Assembly: GCA_041666915.1 (NCBI GenBank)
Contig: JBAYFZ010000001.1
Coordinates: 137,086 to 201,085 of the forward strand
DNA length: 64,000 bases
Source: Minisyncoccota bacterium
GTDB taxonomy: Bacteria > Patescibacteriota > Minisyncoccia > Phycocordibacterales > PALSA-1337
Reading direction: 5' to 3'
The translations under genes and the position numbers were made by a program. Positions 8,393-42,781 of the stretch are shown piece by piece; positions within the stretch are counted from its first letter, which is position 1, and every line of letters begins with the position of its first letter. The notes under the pieces were generated by a model, which worked only from the letters and a program-made list of their open reading frames with translations, was not told where the DNA came from and did no database searches.

Positions 8393-8465
8393 TGCGCGAT
8401 ACAGGATTCGAACCTGTGACCCTCCCCACGTCAAGGGGATGCTCTACCAACTGAGCTAACCGCGC
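8393..8465 (-). tRNA. tRNA-Val (anticodon GAC).
   Basis: Cloverleaf folded by hand: acceptor GCGCGGT/ATCGCGC, D-arm GCTCAGTTGGTAGAGC, anticodon stem TCCCC/GGGGA with loop TTGACGT, T-arm ACAGGTTCGAATCCTGT. No encoded CCA. Confidence 0.9.
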
Positions 8466-8500
8466 ATTTTTGTTACCGCTCAACTCTACCAAAACTTTGC

Positions 8501-9601
8501 CTAAAAATCCATCGGTCCCGAGTTCACGGTTACGTTGCGACGTGAGGCGGTGGAAGTTTCGTAAATCTTGATTTGTTCAATAGTAAACTTTCCTAATTTT
8601 TTTGTAAGGCGTAATTCTACAATATTACCTTTCATAACTTCTGGAGAAAAATATTGATCAAAAAGGAGGTTGCCTATTGAATAGAAAACAGGGACGTCAC
8701 CCATAAAAGAGTGTTCCAAAGTTACATGAGGGTGACCGCCGATTATTGCACTTGCGCCGACCGATACCAACGATCTGGCTTGCGACCTCATCATAGGAGA
8801 AGAACTGGTTGAATATTCTGTACCCCAGTGTGGCATTACGATGACAAAGTAACCATGGTCGGATAATCTTTTTACATCATCTAGTATCCTATCAAAACCC
8901 GGTTGAAAAGCGTGGTAACCGACGAAAGCAACAGTAATATCATTTTTAGTTATAACTGCTTCTGTGGAGCTTGCATTACGAGAATCGCCAAACCATTGGA
9001 GTCCGGATTTTGATAGCCATTTTTTTGTTTCTTCTAGTCCAGAAAGCCCGAAGTTGTCGGTATGATTGTTGGCTAAGCTGAGTAGAGTTATTCCTGTTTT
9101 TGTTAGTGTCTCAGTGACTTTTGGTTCAAATGTAAAAGTAAGTTCCTTGGAAATTTTTCCATTTGGTAAAAGAGTTTTTGATGGATTGGAAGTGATAGGT
9201 CCTTCTAGATTTGCTACGACAATATCAGCTTGTTTGAAAAGTTGTACAGTAGTAGAAGCAAAGAGGGAATCGTAGCCGTATTGTTGACCAAGCCTACGTA
9301 CACCACGGTCCATCATGATGTCGCCACCGATCATTATTGTAAGGGAAGAAGTTGATGGAGTTTTCGTTGTTATAGGAGTTGACTCTGATTGTTTGGAAGT
9401 ATCTGGGATTTCGGAAGATACGGAAATAGGTTGCTGATTTGATGATGTAATATTTTGTATGGCGACACTGACACTAGCGGGCATATTGCTTGCTTTGAAA
9501 CCTTGCAAGCCCACCCACAAAGAACCCCAACCGAATACAACAACTAGTATTGTGTAGAAGATCTTGGCTTTATCTATTGATTTTGGTTCTTCATTATCCA
9601 T
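8501..9601 (-). CDS. CapA/PgsA-family metallophosphatase-like protein (poly-gamma-glutamate capsule biosynthesis family) with an N-terminal membrane anchor.
   Basis: …IMIGGDIMMDRGV…ANLEGPIT…LSLANNHTDNFG…MPHWGTEY…IIGGHPHV… motifs. Confidence 0.8.
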   Translation of the reverse strand: MDNEEPKSIDKAKIFYTILVVVFGWGSLWVGLQGFKASNMPASVSVAIQNITSSNQQPISVSSEIPDTSKQSESTPITTKTPSTSSLTIMIGGDIMMDRGVRRLGQQYGYDSLFASTTVQLFKQADIVVANLEGPITSNPSKTLLPNGKISKELTFTFEPKVTETLTKTGITLLSLANNHTDNFGLSGLEETKKWLSKSGLQWFGDSRNASSTEAVITKNDITVAFVGYHAFQPGFDRILDDVKRLSDHGYFVIVMPHWGTEYSTSSSPMMRSQARSLVSVGASAIIGGHPHVTLEHSFMGDVPVFYSIGNLLFDQYFSPEVMKGNIVELRLTKKLGKFTIEQIKIYETSTASRRNVTVNSGPMDF

Positions 9602-9647
9602 CAGTTTTCAATATGCGGATAGGTGAATTATAGCATGTGGGGGAGGG

Positions 9648-9692
9648 TTTTTAATATAAAAAAACAGGTCTAGATTTTCATCTAAACCTGTC
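9648..9692 (-). terminator. Rho-independent terminator for the 9706..10254 gene.
   Basis: A stem of about 11 bp (CAGGTCTAGAT…ATCTAAACCTG) followed on the minus strand by TTTTTTT. Confidence 0.55.
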
Positions 9693-9705
9693 TGTGAATA
9701 CAATT

Positions 9706-10254
9706 TCACTTTAGTAGCCACGGAATGACTAGAAGTGAACAACCGATAATATTTACTCCAGAGTATAGTCTATCTTCAAGTGTCCAAGCTTTTGCGGAGA
9801 CAAATGCAAGAGTGTTGGAAAGAAGAAATCCTGAATTAGGAATGATGGGGCTACTTTCTGGTGATTTCCAAGTCATTACCATAAATGGTATGAAGGCAAT
9901 AGACGATGCTGTTATTGATAATATCAATGCCAGTTTCGGTCCATTTGTGAGCCAAAGAATTACGCATAACATCACCATGATGGCGATGAGGCTATCCAAC
10001 CCTGACCACGCACATCTTCCTTTGAAGAGAAGAATGATTGTCGTAATTGAAGCACCCGTGCCGTAGACCATGGGAATCGCTGGATTCGCTTTTTGTTTTA
10101 ACATCGTAAAGCATGTTATCCAAGCTAACATGGACCAGAGTCCAAAAGTTGTTAATGACAAACCTTCGCCAGTCCCTTTTGCTGTTGCAATGATCATGTA
10201 GAGGTATGCAGATACACCCGCTACTATACCTAGTATGTTTAAATTTTTCTTCAC
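9706..10254 (-). CDS. Polytopic membrane protein, hypothetical.
   Basis: 5-6 predicted hydrophobic helices. No recognised motif. Confidence 0.6.
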   Translation of the reverse strand: MKKNLNILGIVAGVSAYLYMIIATAKGTGEGLSLTTFGLWSMLAWITCFTMLKQKANPAIPMVYGTGASITTIILLFKGRCAWSGLDSLIAIMVMLCVILWLTNGPKLALILSITASSIAFIPFMVMTWKSPESSPIIPNSGFLLSNTLAFVSAKAWTLEDRLYSGVNIIGCSLLVIPWLLK

Positions 10255-10422
10255 AAGTCATGTCTTTCGTTGATTGTTTGAACCTACTGCTTTTATTATC
10301 ATAGCACGTAGTTTGTGTAGGTGTCAACTATAGGGGAACCGGTCACGCGTATTTTTCTGCTGAAAAATCGCGCGACCCCGACTCGCTCGCCTTCGCGAGC
10401 TCCGTCTTTCGATTCTGAAAAA

Positions 10423-10447
10423 GAGCAATACCCATTGCTCTTTTTCA
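10423..10447. terminator. Bidirectional terminator hairpin downstream of tRNA-Glu.
   Basis: AAAAAGAGCAATACCCATTGCTCTTTTTC. Confidence 0.6.
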
Positions 10448-10475
10448 CTACAAAATTTTACTTCGTAAATTTTTG

Positions 10476-10547
10476 TAGCCCTACGGGGAATCGAACCCCG
10501 ATTACCGCCTTGAAAAGGCGATGTCCTAACCGTTAGACGATAGGGCC
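10476..10547 (-). tRNA. tRNA-Glu (anticodon UUC).
   Basis: Acceptor GGCCCTA/TAGGGCT(A), anticodon stem TCGCC/GGCGG with loop TTTTCAA, T-arm CGGGGTTCGATTCCCCG. Confidence 0.85.
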
Positions 10548-10603
10548 ATGGACTAGATACTACTATTTTTTCATGATTTTGGCAAAAGTGCTATGATGAT
10601 ACG

Positions 10604-11017
10604 ATGACTACGAGGAATGTGTCTGTTCTCATACTTTATAGTAAAGGTAAAATACTATTACAAAAACGTGCCAAGACTGCCAAGAGATTTCCTTGTCGTT
10701 GGGGACTTTTTGGTGGAGGTATAGAGAAAAAAGAGACACCAAAAGCTACTTTGAAAAGGGAAATTATGGAGGAATTAGGTTTGAAATTGACTACTCCCAA
10801 ATTCTTCAAAGAGTATCCATATATTTTGGATGATGTGGGAGAAAGAGGGGATATCTCAGTTTATTTTCATGAGTATAGCAAAGAGAAACTTTATTTAAGG
10901 GAAGGGGAACAAATGAAATGGGTCAGTCTACCGGAAGCTCTCAATTTAGATCTGCATCCGATCTATAGGGATATAATAGAAGATATTGGGAAGAGAGCTG
11001 GTTCTGTGTTATCGTAA
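10604..11017 (+). CDS. NUDIX hydrolase.
   Basis: Nudix box GGGIEKKETPKATLKREIMEELG (Gx5Ex7REUxEExGU). Confidence 0.85.
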   Translation: MTTRNVSVLILYSKGKILLQKRAKTAKRFPCRWGLFGGGIEKKETPKATLKREIMEELGLKLTTPKFFKEYPYILDDVGERGDISVYFHEYSKEKLYLREGEQMKWVSLPEALNLDLHPIYRDIIEDIGKRAGSVLS

Positions 11018-11029
11018 ATTCGTTACCAT

Positions 11030-11116
11030 GGAGAGGTGGCAGAGTGGTCGAATGCACCACTTTCGAAAAGTGGCAGGCTCGCAAGAGCCTCGGGAGTTCG
11101 AATCTCCCCCTCTCCG
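11030..11116 (+). tRNA. tRNA-Ser (anticodon CGA), type II with a long variable arm.
   Basis: Acceptor GGAGAGG/CCTCTCC, discriminator G, anticodon stem CCACT/AGTGG with loop TTCGAAA, variable arm GGCTCGCAAGAGCC, T-arm GGGAGTTCGAATCTCCC. Confidence 0.9.
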
Positions 11117-11140
11117 CAACGAGCTAACTGATGAGAGATT

Positions 11141-11231
11141 GAATTATTCGGAAATTCCGAATAATTCAAAAAGAGAGCGGTGGGGTGGTAGAAAGGAATA
11201 TTGCAACTACTAAGGAATCCTTAGTAGTTCA
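11141..11231. other. Two perfect hairpins between the two tRNA-Ser genes (GAATTATTCGGA-AATT-CCGAATAATTC and ACTACTAAGG-AAT-CCTTAGTAGT). Likely processing or termination signals.
   Basis: Read directly from the sequence. Confidence 0.5.
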
Positions 11232-11313
11232 AAAGCTTGATTACGTAGAAGATGAGATTGTCATAACTAGTGAAAAATATACCCTCTTTATGCTAAGATG
11301 TTTTGGTAACCAT

Positions 11314-11400
11314 GGAGAGATGGCTGAGTGGTTTAAGGCAGCGGTTTACTAAACCGCCGTTCCCTTACAGGAACCGTGGGTTCGAATCCCACTCTCTCCG
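11314..11400 (+). tRNA. Type II Ser-like tRNA whose anticodon loop reads TTACTAA. The anticodon is ACU, where a Ser-GCU would be expected.
   Basis: Acceptor GGAGAGA/TCTCTCC, discriminator G (Ser identity), anticodon stem GCGGT/ACCGC with 7-nt loop TTACTAA, variable arm TTCCCTTACAGGAA, T-arm GTGGGTTCGAATCCCAC. Confidence 0.8.
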
Positions 11401-11526: not shown

Positions 11527-12306
11527 ATGGCACGAAAGATAAGTACAATGAAAATGAATAATGAAGAGATCGATCGTCTACTACGTGTCGTATCTGAAAG
11601 TCTCCGTCTAAGTTGGGAGAAGGCAATGATCAATGGTCAGAGCTTATTAACAATAAAGAAAGAAAGGGAGGATGCTTTTGCCTTGATTGAGTCTAACGAC
11701 AAGAAGGTTAAACGTATTCTAAGTTTAATGTTATTGTTCTGTGCCTCGTCTGTTGCGGCTACGGTGTACATTTCAGTATGTAACATCGTTTGTCCGGCGT
11801 GGGTTAATGAGATACAGGGTTTTCCGATTTTGTTTCTTTTTATCGGTGTTTATGGACAATGGTATCTTGATAAAAAGAGCAGTACTGCACGGCGGGATGT
11901 ATCAGAATGTGAAGAAGTCTTCACATGGTTAGGGGAGTCAGTGGATTCCTTAAATTGTCTCGGTGTTGGTAATCCTCATTGGGATATCATTACTGAGCCA
12001 CAAGTCACTGAGAGATTGGTTCGGGCTGCTTATAGGGTCTTGGATGCGCAAGCAAGCTTTGAATCGTGTCGTGTAAAACCTAGCGTAGATCGGTACAGTG
12101 TGATCCGTGCTGGAAATTGGATTGAGCATTGTGAAGGAATGTTTAATCGGATTTGGGATACAGCTACGCACGATTTCGGTCTGATCTTTGATAAAGGAGA
12201 GATCTTCAAGCAAGCTTTAAAAGAACTTGAGAAGGATAAAGTTAAAAAAACTTCGGATTGCCCCGACGTTCCTTACTTACCAGACTGGGCGAAACCGCCG
12301 GTGTAA
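11527..12306 (+). CDS. Hypothetical protein with a Cys-rich central region, immediately downstream of the tRNA cluster.
   Basis: Long ORF of 259 aa. No recognised motif. Confidence 0.5.
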   Translation: MARKISTMKMNNEEIDRLLRVVSESLRLSWEKAMINGQSLLTIKKEREDAFALIESNDKKVKRILSLMLLFCASSVAATVYISVCNIVCPAWVNEIQGFPILFLFIGVYGQWYLDKKSSTARRDVSECEEVFTWLGESVDSLNCLGVGNPHWDIITEPQVTERLVRAAYRVLDAQASFESCRVKPSVDRYSVIRAGNWIEHCEGMFNRIWDTATHDFGLIFDKGEIFKQALKELEKDKVKKTSDCPDVPYLPDWAKPPV

Positions 12307-12317
12307 TGGTAACAAAA

Positions 12318-12358
12318 GACCCTCGCGTACAAAGTGTACGTGAGGGTTTGTTTTTTTA
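12318..12358 (+). terminator. Strong rho-independent terminator.
   Basis: ACCCTCGCGTAC-AAAGT-GTACGTGAGGGT followed by TTGTTTTTTT. Confidence 0.8.
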
Positions 12359-12366
12359 AATCGTGA

Positions 12367-12636
12367 TCAATCATCGAACTTGATAGTTTTAGGATTCTGT
12401 CTTATTAGGTCTCGTAGAGCCCTTAGATAATTGACGGCTTCTTCGCCGGTTTTGAAGACTGGAGGTGTTGCCAATACAGTTACGTCTTTCTTCCAATCTT
12501 TAATAAAACCAACAATTCTTCCACTTTCACCACCGAAGTGAATCTCAAGATCCGCTCCTGAGGCTTCTGGGGACAGTAACGTCCTAAGAACGTCTGGCTT
12601 AAGACCTAGACAATTTACTAGCATTTCATCTTTCAT
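12367..12636 (-). CDS. Hypothetical 89-aa protein, last gene of the flavinylation-module operon.
   Basis: ORF co-directional with and 68 nt downstream of the 12705..14231 gene. No motif recognised. Confidence 0.5.
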   Translation of the reverse strand: MKDEMLVNCLGLKPDVLRTLLSPEASGADLEIHFGGESGRIVGFIKDWKKDVTVLATPPVFKTGEEAVNYLRALRDLIRQNPKTIKFDD

Positions 12637-12704
12637 AATATATAGAGCTGTTTATTAAAAAGGCTAGCACTAGGCTAGTCAAAAATCAAGCCCTTTTTCC
12701 TCAC

Positions 12705-14231
12705 CTAAAACCCTGGAAAATAATCAACCTTAACGTTTTTCTTGGGTACACCTATTTCAAAAAGAACTTTTTCACAGGCAGTCACGAAGGCGTGTGGGCC
12801 GGACACAAAGAAGAGACGTTCCATATAGTCGGGCACTTCATTCAAAATCATTTTTACATCCACGAAACCTTTGTAGCCAGCCCAATCTTCTGGTAAATGT
12901 TCCAGATCCGATAGGGTACAGACAGTTTTTAGATCCATCTGAACATGTGCACGATGAACAAGGTTGGTGTAGGCTATCTCCTCAAATCTTTTACAACAAT
13001 AAACCAAGGTAACATCACGTCTCTCATCTCTATCTATCATATAAGAAATCATACTTCGGAAAGGTGTGATACCGATACCACCAGCCAAGAAGCAAAGCTT
13101 GGTATTTTTGTTTTTTGGTAAAGTGAATTCTCCAGAAAGTTGTCCCGCTAATATAGTCTTACCTTCTTCCAATTCTGCTAAAGCTTTTTTGAAACTACTA
13201 GATTTTTTGGCGTCAAATTTTATGCCGAGAAGAATCTCTTTTTCTGTTGGAGAAGAAGCGATGGTCAAGTAACGTCTATTACCACGACTATCCGTCTTAT
13301 TATGATCCAAAGTCCATTCCATGTACTGTCCGGGTTTGAATGATATACGTCTATCAGGAACGAAAGCGAATTCTCCAGTATCTTTGGCTATTTTGGTGCT
13401 ACCTTTGAAGGTTAGGATATATTTTAATTTTGGACTCATGAGCCAAGAGAAGATATTTCCTACGCATAGAGCCAATTCTGGAGTGGAATAGAGCCAACCA
13501 ATGTGTATAGTAGGAATGAATAAGACACCCGTTATGGCACCATAAATGACACGACCAGACTTTGTTGGAGGAGTGGTCAGAGGTTCAGTGAGCATTACCA
13601 AAGCAAAGAAAATGATGGGGGAATCCACGAATATTTGACGAAGTAGTACAAGAGGACTTGTATGTCCAAAAGTAGATATAGTAATAGAGATAAATGCAAC
13701 TACTACGAAACTTATTACCAGATCAAACCTTCTGATTTTGCGAGTGATGAATAATCCACCAATCAAAATGAATGGTAACATCCAGATTGTACCAATCCAC
13801 CAAGTTGCGGACTCATGAATAGTAAGAGCTGTCAAAGCTACGGCGAAACCTGCTGGATTGAAAATATGTTTTTTACCAAAAGCTAAAATAAATTTACCCG
13901 CTGAACCCCAGATACCAGCCCAGATGAGGAATGGAACTACTGAAAGATAATGTCCAGTAGTTGGAGGACTGATCAGAAAAGCTAGAATAAGTGCCGTTAT
14001 ATAAACTGATTCAGAATTGGCCGGAGTATTGAATATTTGAGTGAAGATTTTATTTGTCACCCAAGAAACTATCAACAATATTGCTGTTGAGTAAAGAAGA
14101 GCTTGCGGAGTGAATGGTAACTTTCCAAATGCACTCAAAAGGGAAGCGATAAGAAGCCAAGCAGTGAGACAGTACAGTACCAATCTGTACATCGTTATTT
14201 TATTTAATAAGTTATCTATGGATTTAAGCAT
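12705..14231 (-). CDS. Membrane flavocytochrome-like oxidoreductase. The N-terminal half is a polytopic His-containing membrane domain (ferric-reductase/NOX-like). The C-terminal half has FAD-binding and NAD(P)-binding FNR-like domains.
   Basis: C-terminal …RRYLTIASSP… (RxYS-type FAD motif) and …LAGGIGITPFRSM… (NAD-binding GGxGxxP), …FFVSGPHAFV…. N-terminal region with about 6 TM helices and conserved His residues. Confidence 0.6.
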   Translation of the reverse strand: MLKSIDNLLNKITMYRLVLYCLTAWLLIASLLSAFGKLPFTPQALLYSTAILLIVSWVTNKIFTQIFNTPANSESVYITALILAFLISPPTTGHYLSVVPFLIWAGIWGSAGKFILAFGKKHIFNPAGFAVALTALTIHESATWWIGTIWMLPFILIGGLFITRKIRRFDLVISFVVVAFISITISTFGHTSPLVLLRQIFVDSPIIFFALVMLTEPLTTPPTKSGRVIYGAITGVLFIPTIHIGWLYSTPELALCVGNIFSWLMSPKLKYILTFKGSTKIAKDTGEFAFVPDRRISFKPGQYMEWTLDHNKTDSRGNRRYLTIASSPTEKEILLGIKFDAKKSSSFKKALAELEEGKTILAGQLSGEFTLPKNKNTKLCFLAGGIGITPFRSMISYMIDRDERRDVTLVYCCKRFEEIAYTNLVHRAHVQMDLKTVCTLSDLEHLPEDWAGYKGFVDVKMILNEVPDYMERLFFVSGPHAFVTACEKVLFEIGVPKKNVKVDYFPGF

Positions 14232-15027
14232 CTTTTCTTACGAGATTGTCCGCTGGTTGGTGGATTGCGAAACTTTCAAAACCACTAGTCATGGTCGCCA
14301 TACCTGCATTATCAATTATATAACCTTCTAGACCTTTCTGCTTCTCTATAAAGTTAATACCTGCTTTACCCATAGCAAAAACGGCTGTAGCAAAGCGATC
14401 GGCTTCGTAAACATTCGGTCCTATGACAGAAAGACTGACGATGTCAGTAATTTCTTTACCCTTGTTTTTTGGATTGTAAATATGTTGACCACGAATATAA
14501 GTACCAGATGTGGCGATTCCTTGATTTTGCAAATAAACAACTTTTATAATTTCACCTTGTTTGAAAGGGTTTTCTATACCGACTTTCCAAAGCTCTCCTT
14601 TTGAATTGTTGCCACCGACTTGTATATCACCGCCAGCTTCCACATAGTAATCTTTGAAACCATTTTCTTCTATAATTTTTAAAGCGTTATATATTGCCCA
14701 ACCTTTCACTATGCCTGATGGGTCGTATATCCCTTTGCGATTTACAATATCAAAATAACCATCAGTTTCTTTTTTTGTTTGTTCTGATAAAAGGAAGATC
14801 TCTCGCATATCTCTACTTGAATTTTCAATTGAAATTTCACCGCGATTTATCTTCATAATCTCACTATCTTTTTTGTAAGTACTAAATTTTTCATCAACAT
14901 AAACGAAATAATCAAAAGCTTTGTTGATAGCAAGAGATTCGTGAGGAAAAACAGTAGAATCGTTAGTCTTTGGTGAGACTACTTCTATTGTGATAGGCAT
15001 ACCCATAATAATACGGGTCTGTTTCAT
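14224..15027 (-). CDS. apbE: FAD:protein FMN transferase (ApbE family).
   Basis: ApbE signatures …DYFVYVDEKFSTYKKDSEI…, GIVKGWA, …GDIQVGG…, …GIATSGTY…. 8-nt overlap with the downstream gene. Confidence 0.85.
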   Translation of the reverse strand: MKQTRIIMGMPITIEVVSPKTNDSTVFPHESLAINKAFDYFVYVDEKFSTYKKDSEIMKINRGEISIENSSRDMREIFLLSEQTKKETDGYFDIVNRKGIYDPSGIVKGWAIYNALKIIEENGFKDYYVEAGGDIQVGGNNSKGELWKVGIENPFKQGEIIKVVYLQNQGIATSGTYIRGQHIYNPKNKGKEITDIVSLSVIGPNVYEADRFATAVFAMGKAGINFIEKQKGLEGYIIDNAGMATMTSGFESFAIHQPADNLVRKDA

Positions 15028-15028
15028 A

Positions 15029-15475
15029 TTAGATCTTGGCTTGAACCAATGCTTGAGTTAGAGATTTGATGAATCCAGTACTAGTCTGTGTTGCTCCAGA
15101 GACCATATCCACGGTTGCACTCTGAACTTTGATGGCTTCACTCTTCAAAATCGGCATAGCGTGGGCACTTTTTTCTTGGGAAGTCTCCTGATCATTGGGA
15201 TATTGTAAGAATTTGATGTCAGTCAATTTGCTATTAGCAATAGTTGCTTGTACCTCTACGTTGCCATAGAAAACATCTACTACTGGTCCAGTATATGTAC
15301 CATTTTTGTATTTAATTGAAGCACTTGCTGAGATTTTTGGTTTTGTAGGGGTCACGTTCAATTCTGATGTTACTGGTGTAGGTGAAGAAGCAACCTCTTT
15401 CACTTTTGAAGTGGTCCAAAATGAATAAAATGCAAAGACGATTATTAGTGATAGTGATAAGTATAGTTTTTTCAT
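15029..15475 (-). CDS. Secreted FMN-binding-domain protein, the likely flavinylation substrate of ApbE.
   Basis: Signal/anchor peptide. C-terminal FMN_bind motif …VDMVSGATQTSTGF… (S/T-G-A-T, where Thr is the flavinylated residue in NqrC/RnfG-like proteins). Confidence 0.75.
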   Translation of the reverse strand: MKKLYLSLSLIIVFAFYSFWTTSKVKEVASSPTPVTSELNVTPTKPKISASASIKYKNGTYTGPVVDVFYGNVEVQATIANSKLTDIKFLQYPNDQETSQEKSAHAMPILKSEAIKVQSATVDMVSGATQTSTGFIKSLTQALVQAKI

Positions 15476-15617: not shown

Positions 15618-16142
15618 ATGAAAGCAAAAAAAGATTTTATATGTTGCACGATCAAGAAGGTCAAAAAAACTAAGGTCAAAGTTCCAAAGAAAGGTTTTAC
15701 TTTGATAGAAGTTCTAGTGGTTATAGGTATCATTGCTATCTTAGCGGCGGTTGTTTTGGTAGCAGTCAATCCTTCAAGACAATTCAAGTTGGCTCGTGAT
15801 TCTCAGAGAGTTAGTAATGTAAATGCTTTATTGAATGCTATTCATCAAAATATGGCTGAACATCGTGGAATGTTTGTCTGTGGTGGTGTTACAAGGGTCT
15901 TACCAAGTACTGCTAGGGTAGTCAAAACAGCTTCTTCTTCACCAGAAGATGAAGGTGACATAGCTTCTTGCTTGGTGCCAGACTATTTATCTTCTTTACC
16001 AGTTGATCCTTCAATGACCAACGCTCATTTTTCTGACGCAACAGATTATGATACCGGATATGTTATTTATAAGGATATAAACAATCGCATTACTGCTAGT
16101 TCAACAGGTGAGTTGACCACATCTATATCAGTGACACGTTGA
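15618..16142 (+). CDS. Type IV pilin-like protein with a prepilin N-terminal cleavage/methylation motif.
   Basis: …KKGFTLIEVLVVIGIIAILAAVVLVA… (class III signal G|FTLIE followed by a hydrophobic helix). Confidence 0.75.
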   Translation: MKAKKDFICCTIKKVKKTKVKVPKKGFTLIEVLVVIGIIAILAAVVLVAVNPSRQFKLARDSQRVSNVNALLNAIHQNMAEHRGMFVCGGVTRVLPSTARVVKTASSSPEDEGDIASCLVPDYLSSLPVDPSMTNAHFSDATDYDTGYVIYKDINNRITASSTGELTTSISVTR

Positions 16143-42490: not shown

Positions 42491-42781
42491 TTATTTTATT
42501 GTCATACCCTGATCAACATTGGCTGCGTCAGCGTTCAAAGCTTCTACTTGTTTACTAAAAGCGTCAAGATCATTTTGTATAGCCGTAGTAGATGTGTCTG
42601 TCTCCGCACTAAGTCCTGTACCTGCTGTGTTAGGTTCTTTTGGTGGTGGAGTTACGACGGTTTCAGTTACTATTGGTGTTGGTTCTACTTTTACTTGCGA
42701 ATTGTTGTACCAAATCCAACCTATTACGATAATAACTAGTATAATCACTAGAGCAATACCCGTTTTTGCTGTTGTTGTCAT
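42491..42781 (-). CDS. Small membrane-anchored protein, hypothetical.
   Basis: N-terminal TM (IALVIILVIIVIGWIWY) followed by a Pro/Thr-rich linker. Confidence 0.5.
   Translation of the reverse strand: MTTTAKTGIALVIILVIIVIGWIWYNNSQVKVEPTPIVTETVVTPPPKEPNTAGTGLSAETDTSTTAIQNDLDAFSKQVEALNADAANVDQGMTIK

Follow-up and report, generated by a model that had tools for sequence, protein, structure and literature searches.

A 64,000-nucleotide stretch of a Minisyncoccota bacterium contig (JBAYFZ010000001.1, positions 137,086 to 201,085 of the forward strand; hereafter the window) carries on its minus strand a cassette of three closely packed genes. They encode a small FMN_bind protein, an ApbE-type transferase for flavin mononucleotide (FMN), and a fusion protein that joins an RnfD/NqrB-like membrane domain to an FNR-type domain for flavin adenine dinucleotide (FAD) and NAD(P)H. 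It is probable (roughly 0.7) that this cassette passes electrons from NAD(P)H through the RnfD/NqrB-type domain to the FMN protein on the outer side of the membrane, acting as one half of an Rnf or Nqr complex that works in one direction. The locus is a member of the already catalogued, bioinformatically defined NQR/RNF-like class. The cassette consists of the following features (aa, amino acids).

15029-15475, minus strand: small flavinylated subunit, NqrC/RnfG-like FMN_bind protein, 148 aa (PF04205)
14224-15027, minus strand: ApbE-type FAD:protein FMN transferase, 267 aa (PF02424)
12705-14231, minus strand: fusion protein, 508 aa (PF03116 and PF00175)
13422-14231, minus strand: membrane domain of the fusion protein, residues 1-270, RnfD/NqrB fold (PF03116; AlphaFold2 and Foldseek)
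12705-13421, minus strand: FNR-type FAD/NAD(P)H domain of the fusion protein, residues 271-508 plus stop codon (PF00175)

The NQR/RNF-like system is the flavinylation-associated gene cluster encoding a PF03116::PF00175 fusion, for which unidirectional transfer from NAD(P)H to extracytosolic FMN has been proposed (Méheust et al. 2021 eLife, PMC8238504). It is known mainly from the Candidate Phyla Radiation (CPR) and Actinobacteria (Méheust 2021, PMC8238504; Huang 2024, PMC11334425). Every testable defining feature of the class was found in the window: a single protein has PF03116 at its N-terminal and PF00175 at its C-terminal end, with a fold supported by Foldseek, and it is encoded within five genes of ApbE and of an FMN_bind protein bearing an MKK plus hydrophobic N-terminus. 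The taxonomic home (CPR, Actinobacteria, Chloroflexi) is the same, the membrane domain likewise lacks a flavinylation site, NqrD/E or RnfA/E are likewise missing, and no essential difference was seen. What the present analysis adds to the class is that the ApbE is leaderless family-wide and that the family far exceeds the 127 clusters originally counted.

An earlier reading of the sequence (the original prediction) had taken the locus for an ApbE-associated flavinylation module in a CPR-like genome and for a candidate extracellular electron-transfer or reductase system, and had recommended comparison with the catalogued flavinylation systems. The flavinylation module was confirmed, the closest relatives are overwhelmingly Patescibacteria/CPR, and the comparison led to the NQR/RNF-like class, for which the literature likewise proposes transmembrane electron export (PMC8238504, PMC11334425). 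An open reading frame (ORF) check found all four predicted minus-strand ORFs in place, that is, the three cassette genes and an 89-aa ORF.

Synteny was counted in 80 related loci that were fetched. An FMN_bind gene was present in 71 and an ApbE gene in 72 of them. In 64 the three genes, abutting or overlapping, follow one another on a single strand exactly in the order FMN_bind, ApbE, fusion; four of the 16 remaining loci are cut by contig ends. This order occurs in Patescibacteria, Chloroflexota, Thermoleophilia, Acidobacteriota and Verrucomicrobiota, and the groups carrying the cassette include Ktedonobacteraceae, Herpetosiphonaceae, Aggregatilineales, Anaerolineales and Udaeobacter. In most loci the fusion is followed by an unrelated singleton gene. 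The cassette comprises strictly three genes. At 90% clustering, more than 7,700 relatives of the fusion protein were found, with metagenome-assembled genomes of Patescibacteria at the head of the list. A search with the membrane domain alone gave 1,484 clusters formed at 50% identity, of which 356 had E<=1e-30; most members are 490-515 aa in length. A scan of GTDB species genomes confirmed at least 588 loci. Comparison of the fusion gene with that of a sister strain gave a ratio of nonsynonymous to synonymous substitution rates (dN/dS) of 0.096, indicating strong purifying selection. Many homologues carry only PF00175 in precomputed Pfam annotation because PF03116 scores near the threshold, and since PF03116 is so weakly detected, the original number of 127 clusters is likely to be a large underestimate.

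The genes are tightly spaced in the window. The ApbE gene starts 1 nt past the FMN_bind stop codon, and the fusion gene, from its ATG on, shares 8 nt with the end of the ApbE gene (ATGCTTAA). Public gene calls place the start of the fusion at Met14, giving 495 aa (P0001, L083; window 14192-14231, minus strand). The 13-residue N-terminal extension MLKxIDNxLNKIT is kept in most homologues, forms a confident helix in the model and accounts for the 8-nt ApbE/fusion overlap seen at many loci (gap -7); the 508-aa start is therefore probably the correct one.

The FMN_bind subunit and its ApbE

The product of the first gene matched PF04205 in a hidden Markov model (HMM) search (E 6e-9), with weak NCBIfam matches to NqrC, PplA and RnfG. 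Its N-terminus, judged by hydropathy and charge as a proxy for SignalP, consists of MKK followed by a 19-residue hydrophobic segment (residues 4-22) of the signal-anchor type; an S/T/P-rich linker follows, and the FMN_bind domain occupies residues 70-143. The acceptor is Thr129 in the sequence VDMVSGAT (motif D123-M-V-S-G-A-T129; codon 15089-15091), 19 residues from the C-terminus, and conforms to the Dxx[ST]GA[TS] motif of ApbE substrates of the NqrC/RnfG/PplA type. In an alignment with the covalently flavinylated FMN domain 8p2a_A (E 4.5e-12), SGAT fell on SGAT (DAVSGAT in 8p2a). An N-terminal signal and the Thr acceptor, as claimed by the original prediction, were thus both found. Anchor and motif were kept in 70 of the 71 orthologues, where the motif lies 17-21 residues before the C-terminal end and the S/T/P/N-rich linker varies in length. 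Ser replaces Thr at the acceptor position in 17 of the 71 partners (SGAS in 14, TGAS in three). An Aggregatilineales locus (L070, 4266-5213) encodes a tandem two-domain FMN_bind subunit with two motifs, and two further loci (L056 and L078) have two FMN_bind genes each. A twin-arginine (Tat) signal was looked for and was not consistently present on the partners across the loci. A candidate second FMN_bind gene in the window (42491-42781, minus strand) was rejected as a compositional match (phmmer E 6e-4) with no FMN_bind domain; its 96-aa product has a transmembrane (TM) helix and a T/P-rich linker and adjoins a 311-aa secreted coiled-coil-like protein.

The second gene product matched PF02424 (E 2e-40) and aligned to the ApbE structures of E. 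coli, Salmonella and V. cholerae (E 8e-19 to 1e-12). The alignments covered the sequence GIATSGTY of the FAD site, the His in GQHIYNP, and EADRFAT of the Mg site; in the E. coli enzyme (4xgw) they fell on GISTSGSY, SHVIDP and EADAWDT, respectively. Both the HMM match and the conserved FAD- and Mg-site residues thus place the protein in the ApbE family. About 50 residues of E. coli ApbE (105-163) have no counterpart in the cassette protein. The subfamily is compact (~248 aa) and unusually conserved, with 60-74% identity across phyla.

No signal peptide, lipobox or TM segment was detected in the window ApbE or in about 70 orthologues. Only seven residues precede the MGMP core, which begins at residue 8, the most hydrophobic 19-mer scores 0.82, which is too low for a TM segment, and only 10 non-hydrophobic codons separate the ATG from the upstream in-frame stop. 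Exactly seven residues precede MG[MT] in 51 of the 72 orthologues, the start having the form M-K-x-T-R-x-x-MG[MT]. Among more than 7,800 database relatives, nearly all of the best 120 have a length of 241-260 aa, diderm lineages included. The cassette ApbE is thus leaderless across the family and, from its sequence, predicted to be cytoplasmic. JGI records call many members of the subfamily 'thiamine biosynthesis lipoprotein' despite the missing lipobox. A fusion of FMN_bind and ApbE by frameshift or readthrough was excluded because intergenic spacing and frame vary among the loci, from a 1-nt overlap to gaps of 1, 3, 4, 10 or 11 nt.

A typical ApbE is a secreted lipoprotein; the cytoplasmic examples that are known all act on substrates in the cytoplasm (PMC12052999). 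The cytoplasmic ApbE of Klebsiella pneumoniae resembles that of the cassette in having no signal peptide, but its substrate is a soluble cytoplasmic fumarate reductase, whereas the cassette substrate carries an export/anchor signal. The absence of an export signal on the cassette ApbE is explained by no current model, and a leaderless ApbE is not discussed in the text of the two papers on the NQR/RNF-like system (PMC8238504, PMC11334425). The C-terminal motif may be flavinylated before translocation, the FMN_bind domain may face inward, or the ApbE may be exported by an unconventional route. Of the original label 'extracytosolic flavinylation', the second word stands, as the module is of the flavinylation type, and the first is questionable for an enzyme with neither signal peptide nor lipobox. 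We tentatively suggest, with considerable doubt, that the ApbE of this system, which the present data make the common one for flavinylation in CPR bacteria, acts in the cytoplasm, either attaching FMN before translocation or serving a domain that faces inward.

If the FMN_bind domain itself were cytoplasmic, the leaderless ApbE could flavinylate it there, and it could shuttle electrons from the FNR domain to the RnfD-like domain, and back, on the inner side of the membrane; the RnfD-like domain alone would then handle the outward step or a membrane-internal acceptor. The lack of export and membrane signals in the whole set of ApbE orthologues and the K. pneumoniae precedent (PMC12052999) fit such an arrangement. 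Against it, the partner always has the MKK plus ~19 hydrophobic residues of an N-in/C-out signal-anchor followed by the S/T/P/N-rich linker, and is homologous to the periplasmic NqrC and RnfG. In addition, the outer loops of the membrane domain bear invariant aromatic and His residues (see below), and the published AlphaFold-multimer model of the two-subunit complex of Ktedonobacter racemifer has the FMN_bind protein docked on the outer face (Huang et al. 2024 mSystems, PMC11334425). An inward-facing FMN_bind domain is therefore considered unlikely.

The membrane-spanning fusion protein

The C-terminal half of the fusion protein matched PF00175 NAD_binding_1 (E 3.5e-14, 53.8 bits, residues 381-487), and the NCBIfam models for flavohaemoprotein, NAD(P)H-flavin reductase and NqrF span residues 283-505. 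Its best profile matches in the PDB were the FAD/NAD domains of NqrF (1e-17), and Foldseek gave TM-scores normalised to the target (TMt) of 0.85 to 4eh1 and 0.73 to NqrF. The FNR motifs RRY-L-TIASSP (319-328), SSSF (344-347), GGIGITP (384-390) and SGP (477-479) are present, and in 18 homologues RRY-x-TIASSP, SSSF, GGIGITP and SGP are invariant. The protein ends in DYFPGF with the stacking Phe505, and the profile alignment with the PDB placed the C-terminal ...DFFPG on ...DDFGG of NqrF with its stacking Phe; this C-terminal Phe, too, is invariant. The C-terminal half is a complete FNR-type two-domain module, and the 2Fe-2S domain of NqrF is missing from it. The FAD/NAD(P) module of the original prediction was upheld by the HMM matches in the C-terminal domain, and to judge from the motifs it looks functional.

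The membrane domain matched PF03116 NQR2_RnfD_RnfE over residues 153-264 (E 2.5e-7, 30.8 bits with a cut-off of 27.7). A family profile matched Azotobacter vinelandii RnfD in hmmsearch (8ahx_D; residues 154-246 on 221-313, E 9e-4), and hhalign aligned residues 157-261 with 230-334 of E. coli RsxD at 92% probability. AlphaFold2 models had a mean predicted local distance difference test score (pLDDT) of 83 for the full-length fusion and, for residues 1-272, of 85.7 with a predicted TM-score (pTM) of 0.84. The N-terminal domain was modelled and searched separately because matches to the FNR domain swamped the full-length Foldseek search. The top 15 PDB matches of this domain were all RnfD or NqrB (prob 1.00, TM-score normalised to the query (TMq) 0.58-0.70, 281-344 aligned columns); below them the list held only weak Amt/urea-channel matches, and no NOX, MsrQ or cytochrome b fold was among the PDB matches.

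Topology was derived from a positive-inside analysis in which loop charge was averaged over the 18 homologues. K/R-rich segments were found at the N-terminus and at residues 116-125, 165-169, 223-227 and 266-272, the last leading into the FNR domain, and five loops are free of K and R (35-41, 88-98, 139-151, 188-192, 238-250). The N-terminus is accordingly predicted to lie inside, followed by about 10 helices, with the FNR domain in the cytoplasm and the K/R-free loops outside. The outer-face loops carry the invariant residues W144, W145 and H243.

In RsxD the flavinylated Thr187 (DGISQAT) lies in an outer loop of ~65 residues between the FNPA helix and the next helix. The corresponding loop of the fusion protein (139-151) has 13 residues (HESATWWIGTIWM) and is conserved as xSA[ST]WW, which lacks two residues of the ApbE motif, Asp at -6 and Ser/Thr at -3; the secure part of the RsxD alignment begins at residue 230, downstream of T187. 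The membrane domain thus appears, from the alignments, to lack the flavinylation loop and Thr of RnfD/NqrB, as has been described for the NqrB/RnfD-like subunit of this class, which has no conserved flavinylation site (PMC11334425). The sequence xSA[ST]WW was considered as a cryptic flavinylation site and rejected because it misfits the motif, and a low-scoring HMMER alignment of the outer loop 139-151 to RnfD 84-100 was judged spurious.

These features relate the cassette to two six-subunit complexes. With the Na+-NQR of V. cholerae (NqrA-F; 7xk3, 8a1t) it shares the NqrB fold of the membrane domain (TMq ~0.6), a small subunit resembling NqrC, which has covalent FMN on Thr, and an FNR domain closest to the FAD/NAD domain of NqrF, C-terminal stacking Phe included. 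It differs in lacking NqrA, NqrD and NqrE, in having the NqrF-like part, devoid of the 2Fe-2S domain, fused to the C-terminus of the NqrB-like domain, and in having no covalent FMN site on the latter. CPR bacteria also have no quinone, which rules out a semicircular path and makes Na+ pumping improbable. In the Rnf complex (RnfABCDGE; 7zc6, 8ahx, 9eri), RnfD is the best match of the membrane domain in both structure and sequence, and the partner subunit is RnfG-like in architecture. In contrast to Rnf, the cassette has no RnfA, RnfB, RnfC or RnfE, its NAD(P)H site is an FNR module instead of RnfC, and the outer loop with the flavinylated Thr is cut down as described above. The families of a canonical six-subunit Rnf or Na+-NQR were found neither in the window nor recurring in the 80 loci.

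The kinship with these complexes raises the question of energy coupling: the RnfD/NqrB-like domain could have kept a path for Na+ or H+, with NAD(P)H oxidation driving pumping or an ion gradient driving reverse electron flow. NqrB and RnfD belong to ion-translocating complexes, the Amt/urea-channel-like fold that they share was also among the weaker Foldseek matches, and the acidic residues E74, D170, E216 and E252 are invariant in the membrane domain. However, neither the window nor the related loci contain NqrD/E or RnfA/E, which hold the intramembrane Fe-S centre central to coupling in Nqr and Rnf, and we regard an energy-coupled device as quite unlikely.

The original prediction had placed the membrane domain, described as His-rich, with the NOX/MsrQ-like proteins, in which electrons from an FNR module travel outward over bis-His haems held by the membrane helices. 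The general plan, a polytopic N-terminal domain with a C-terminal FNR module moving electrons from cytoplasmic NAD(P)H through FAD across the membrane, is indeed common to the cassette and to the NOX, MsrQ-like and ferric reductase (FRD) proteins, MsrQ-like proteins likewise occur in flavinylation clusters, and Streptococcus pneumoniae NOX was among the full-length Foldseek matches (ranks 12 and 14), though via the FNR domain only and with a root-mean-square deviation of 15-17 Å. The 6-TM haem domain of those proteins is nevertheless unlike the flavin-based RnfD fold found here. Instead of the anticipated Ferric_reduct, FAD_binding_8 and NAD_binding_6 domains (no match to PF01794, PF08022 or PF08030 at E<=0.01), Pfam returned PF03116, and the N-terminal model matched only RnfD and NqrB at prob 1.00. 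The C-terminal domain is closest to NqrF and has NAD_binding_1 in place of NAD_binding_6; PF08030 was seen in the precomputed list of a single distant homologue (P0105). Nor is the domain rich in His: it has five in 272 residues, of which only H122 and H243 are invariant. H122 is predicted to lie inside and H243 outside, and being on opposite faces they do not make a haem-ligand pair. A haem-based route is thus effectively refuted. The idea that the genes are what is left of a decayed Rnf/Nqr operon, or stand together by chance and do not work as a unit, draws on the presence of only two of the six subunit types. It is effectively refuted as well, by the conservation of the cassette in order across several phyla, in number of species genomes and clusters, in selection on the fusion gene and in gene spacing.

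Proposed electron path

For the outward path favoured here, we infer cofactor occupancy, direction of flow, docking of the subunits (from Huang 2024) and the acceptor. NAD(P)H would give up its electrons to FAD in the cytoplasmic FNR domain, which is NqrF-like and lacks the 2Fe-2S domain, and the electrons would cross the membrane through one or more flavin sites held in the RnfD/NqrB-like domain. They would then reach the FMN attached by ApbE to Thr129 of the anchored FMN_bind subunit. This subunit would dock on the K/R-free outer face, where the invariant W144, W145 and H243 lie, and would replace the covalent FMN lost by the RnfD-like domain; for the K. racemifer complex, the covalent flavin of the small subunit has been proposed to sample a non-covalent flavin site of the membrane subunit (PMC11334425). 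The tethered flavin would finally reduce an extracytoplasmic acceptor for which the cassette has no gene. For a fermentative CPR cell, the path would on balance regenerate NAD(P)+, reduce an external metal or oxidant, or both.

A comparable outer carrier, a tethered FMN_bind protein flavinylated by ApbE, operates in the flavin-based extracellular electron transfer of Listeria (Ndh2, EetA/B, FmnB=ApbE, PplA). That system, however, uses a quinone pool, a secreted lipoprotein ApbE (FmnB) and dedicated flavin export, whereas the cassette has no quinone step, a membrane protein that oxidises NAD(P)H directly and a leaderless ApbE.

Several points weigh against the outward path. It is difficult to see how a leaderless, predicted cytoplasmic ApbE would flavinylate a domain that is exported. 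Homology to RnfD at the sequence level is limited to residues ~154-264, and for the remainder of the membrane domain the assignment comes from a predicted fold. Clustering of all neighbours in the 80 loci revealed no conserved terminal reductase or acceptor gene beside the cassette, and our literature search found no experimental study of any NQR/RNF-like member.

Neighbouring genes and biological meaning

The surroundings of the cassette in the window include the following features.

15618-16142, strand opposite to the cassette: divergent prepilin-type (pilin) gene (N_methyl match)
12664-12678, minus strand: weak terminator-like hairpin, 5-bp stem and T-run, between the fusion gene and the 89-aa ORF
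12367-12636, minus strand: 89-aa ORF, no family, outside the conserved cassette
12317-12349, no strand assigned: strong hairpin, 15-bp stem and T-runs, between the convergent 89-aa and 259-aa ORFs

The 89-aa ORF, which the original prediction had included in the operon, begins after a spacer of 68 nt downstream of the fusion gene, and the weak hairpin in this spacer is kept in the intergenic region of the sister strain. The ORF had no match in Pfam, NCBIfam, PHROG or PADLOC, and phmmer did not find it in any of the 80 related loci. Among 5.8 billion clusters it had a single homologue, in the sister strain, with 93% identity and the same synteny. Its dN/dS was 0.22, a value derived from only 16 substitutions. 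These observations suggest a real but lineage-specific gene. As a fourth component of the cassette it was rejected, being present in none of the 80 loci, where the downstream genes are unrelated. In the region 12350-12650 the ORF and its upstream spacer are ~94% identical to the DNA of the sister strain (L081), and the adjacent fusion gene is 75-93% identical; the respective dS values are 0.16 for the 89-aa ORF region and 0.78 for the fusion gene. This difference in divergence looks like a mosaic or recombination pattern, or like extra constraint at the nucleotide level.

The hairpin at 12317-12349 is likely to be the end of transcription for both directions. The convergent 259-aa ORF beyond it (11527-12306, plus strand) has a central hydrophobic stretch, is conserved in the sister strain and had no family match in Pfam, NCBIfam, PHROGs or PADLOC. 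Four tRNA genes are clustered in window 8393-11400: 8393-8465 and 10476-10547 on the minus strand, and 11030-11116 and 11314-11400 on the plus strand, the latter two being of the long-arm type (87 nt). A NUDIX gene (10604-11017) sits within the cluster, flanked by tRNA genes.

The pilin gene does lie divergently next to the cassette, as had been noted, but the pairing is incidental: a pilin was found at four of the 80 loci, and a linkage to the cassette was rejected. Neighbours in the window and in locus L083 comprise pilin, DD-carboxypeptidase, NUDIX and others. Over the 80 loci, weak and non-universal neighbours were MacB/YknXYZ-like ABC transporters (18), extracytoplasmic function (ECF) sigma factors (11), Cu P-type ATPases (6) and HMA-DsbD-like proteins (4), with VIT1, NRAMP, CDF, cupredoxin and DUF1775/YcnI as single instances. 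Metal-related genes stand beside the cassette at a minority of loci (L004, L046, L080, L028, L060, L077, L022, L086), the Cu P-type ATPase coming with the HMA-DsbD-like protein, and a set of ECF sigma factor and YknX/MacB-type ABC efflux genes recurs near it (L003, L017, L024, L026, L029, L047, L065, L071, L086). VIT1 iron transporters have been reported in six NQR/RNF-like clusters (PMC8238504). At most, the neighbourhoods of the cassette lean towards metals or envelope stress.

The class had already been described bioinformatically, and the window locus as such adds only a clean example of it. The refinements are the larger family, the strictly three-gene cassette and the leaderless ApbE, the last of which raises the question of where flavinylation happens. 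CPR/Patescibacteria have almost no membrane redox machinery, and a widespread, strongly conserved cassette that may oxidise NAD(P)H and hand the electrons outward bears on the redox balance, metal acquisition or oxidant defence of these fermentative episymbionts. If the ApbE does act in the cytoplasm, the picture of extracytosolic flavinylation would fail for the NQR/RNF-like class and FAD export would be unnecessary; the cassette would then be a self-sufficient outlet for electrons from NAD(P)H to the outside in organisms that have no electron-transport chain.

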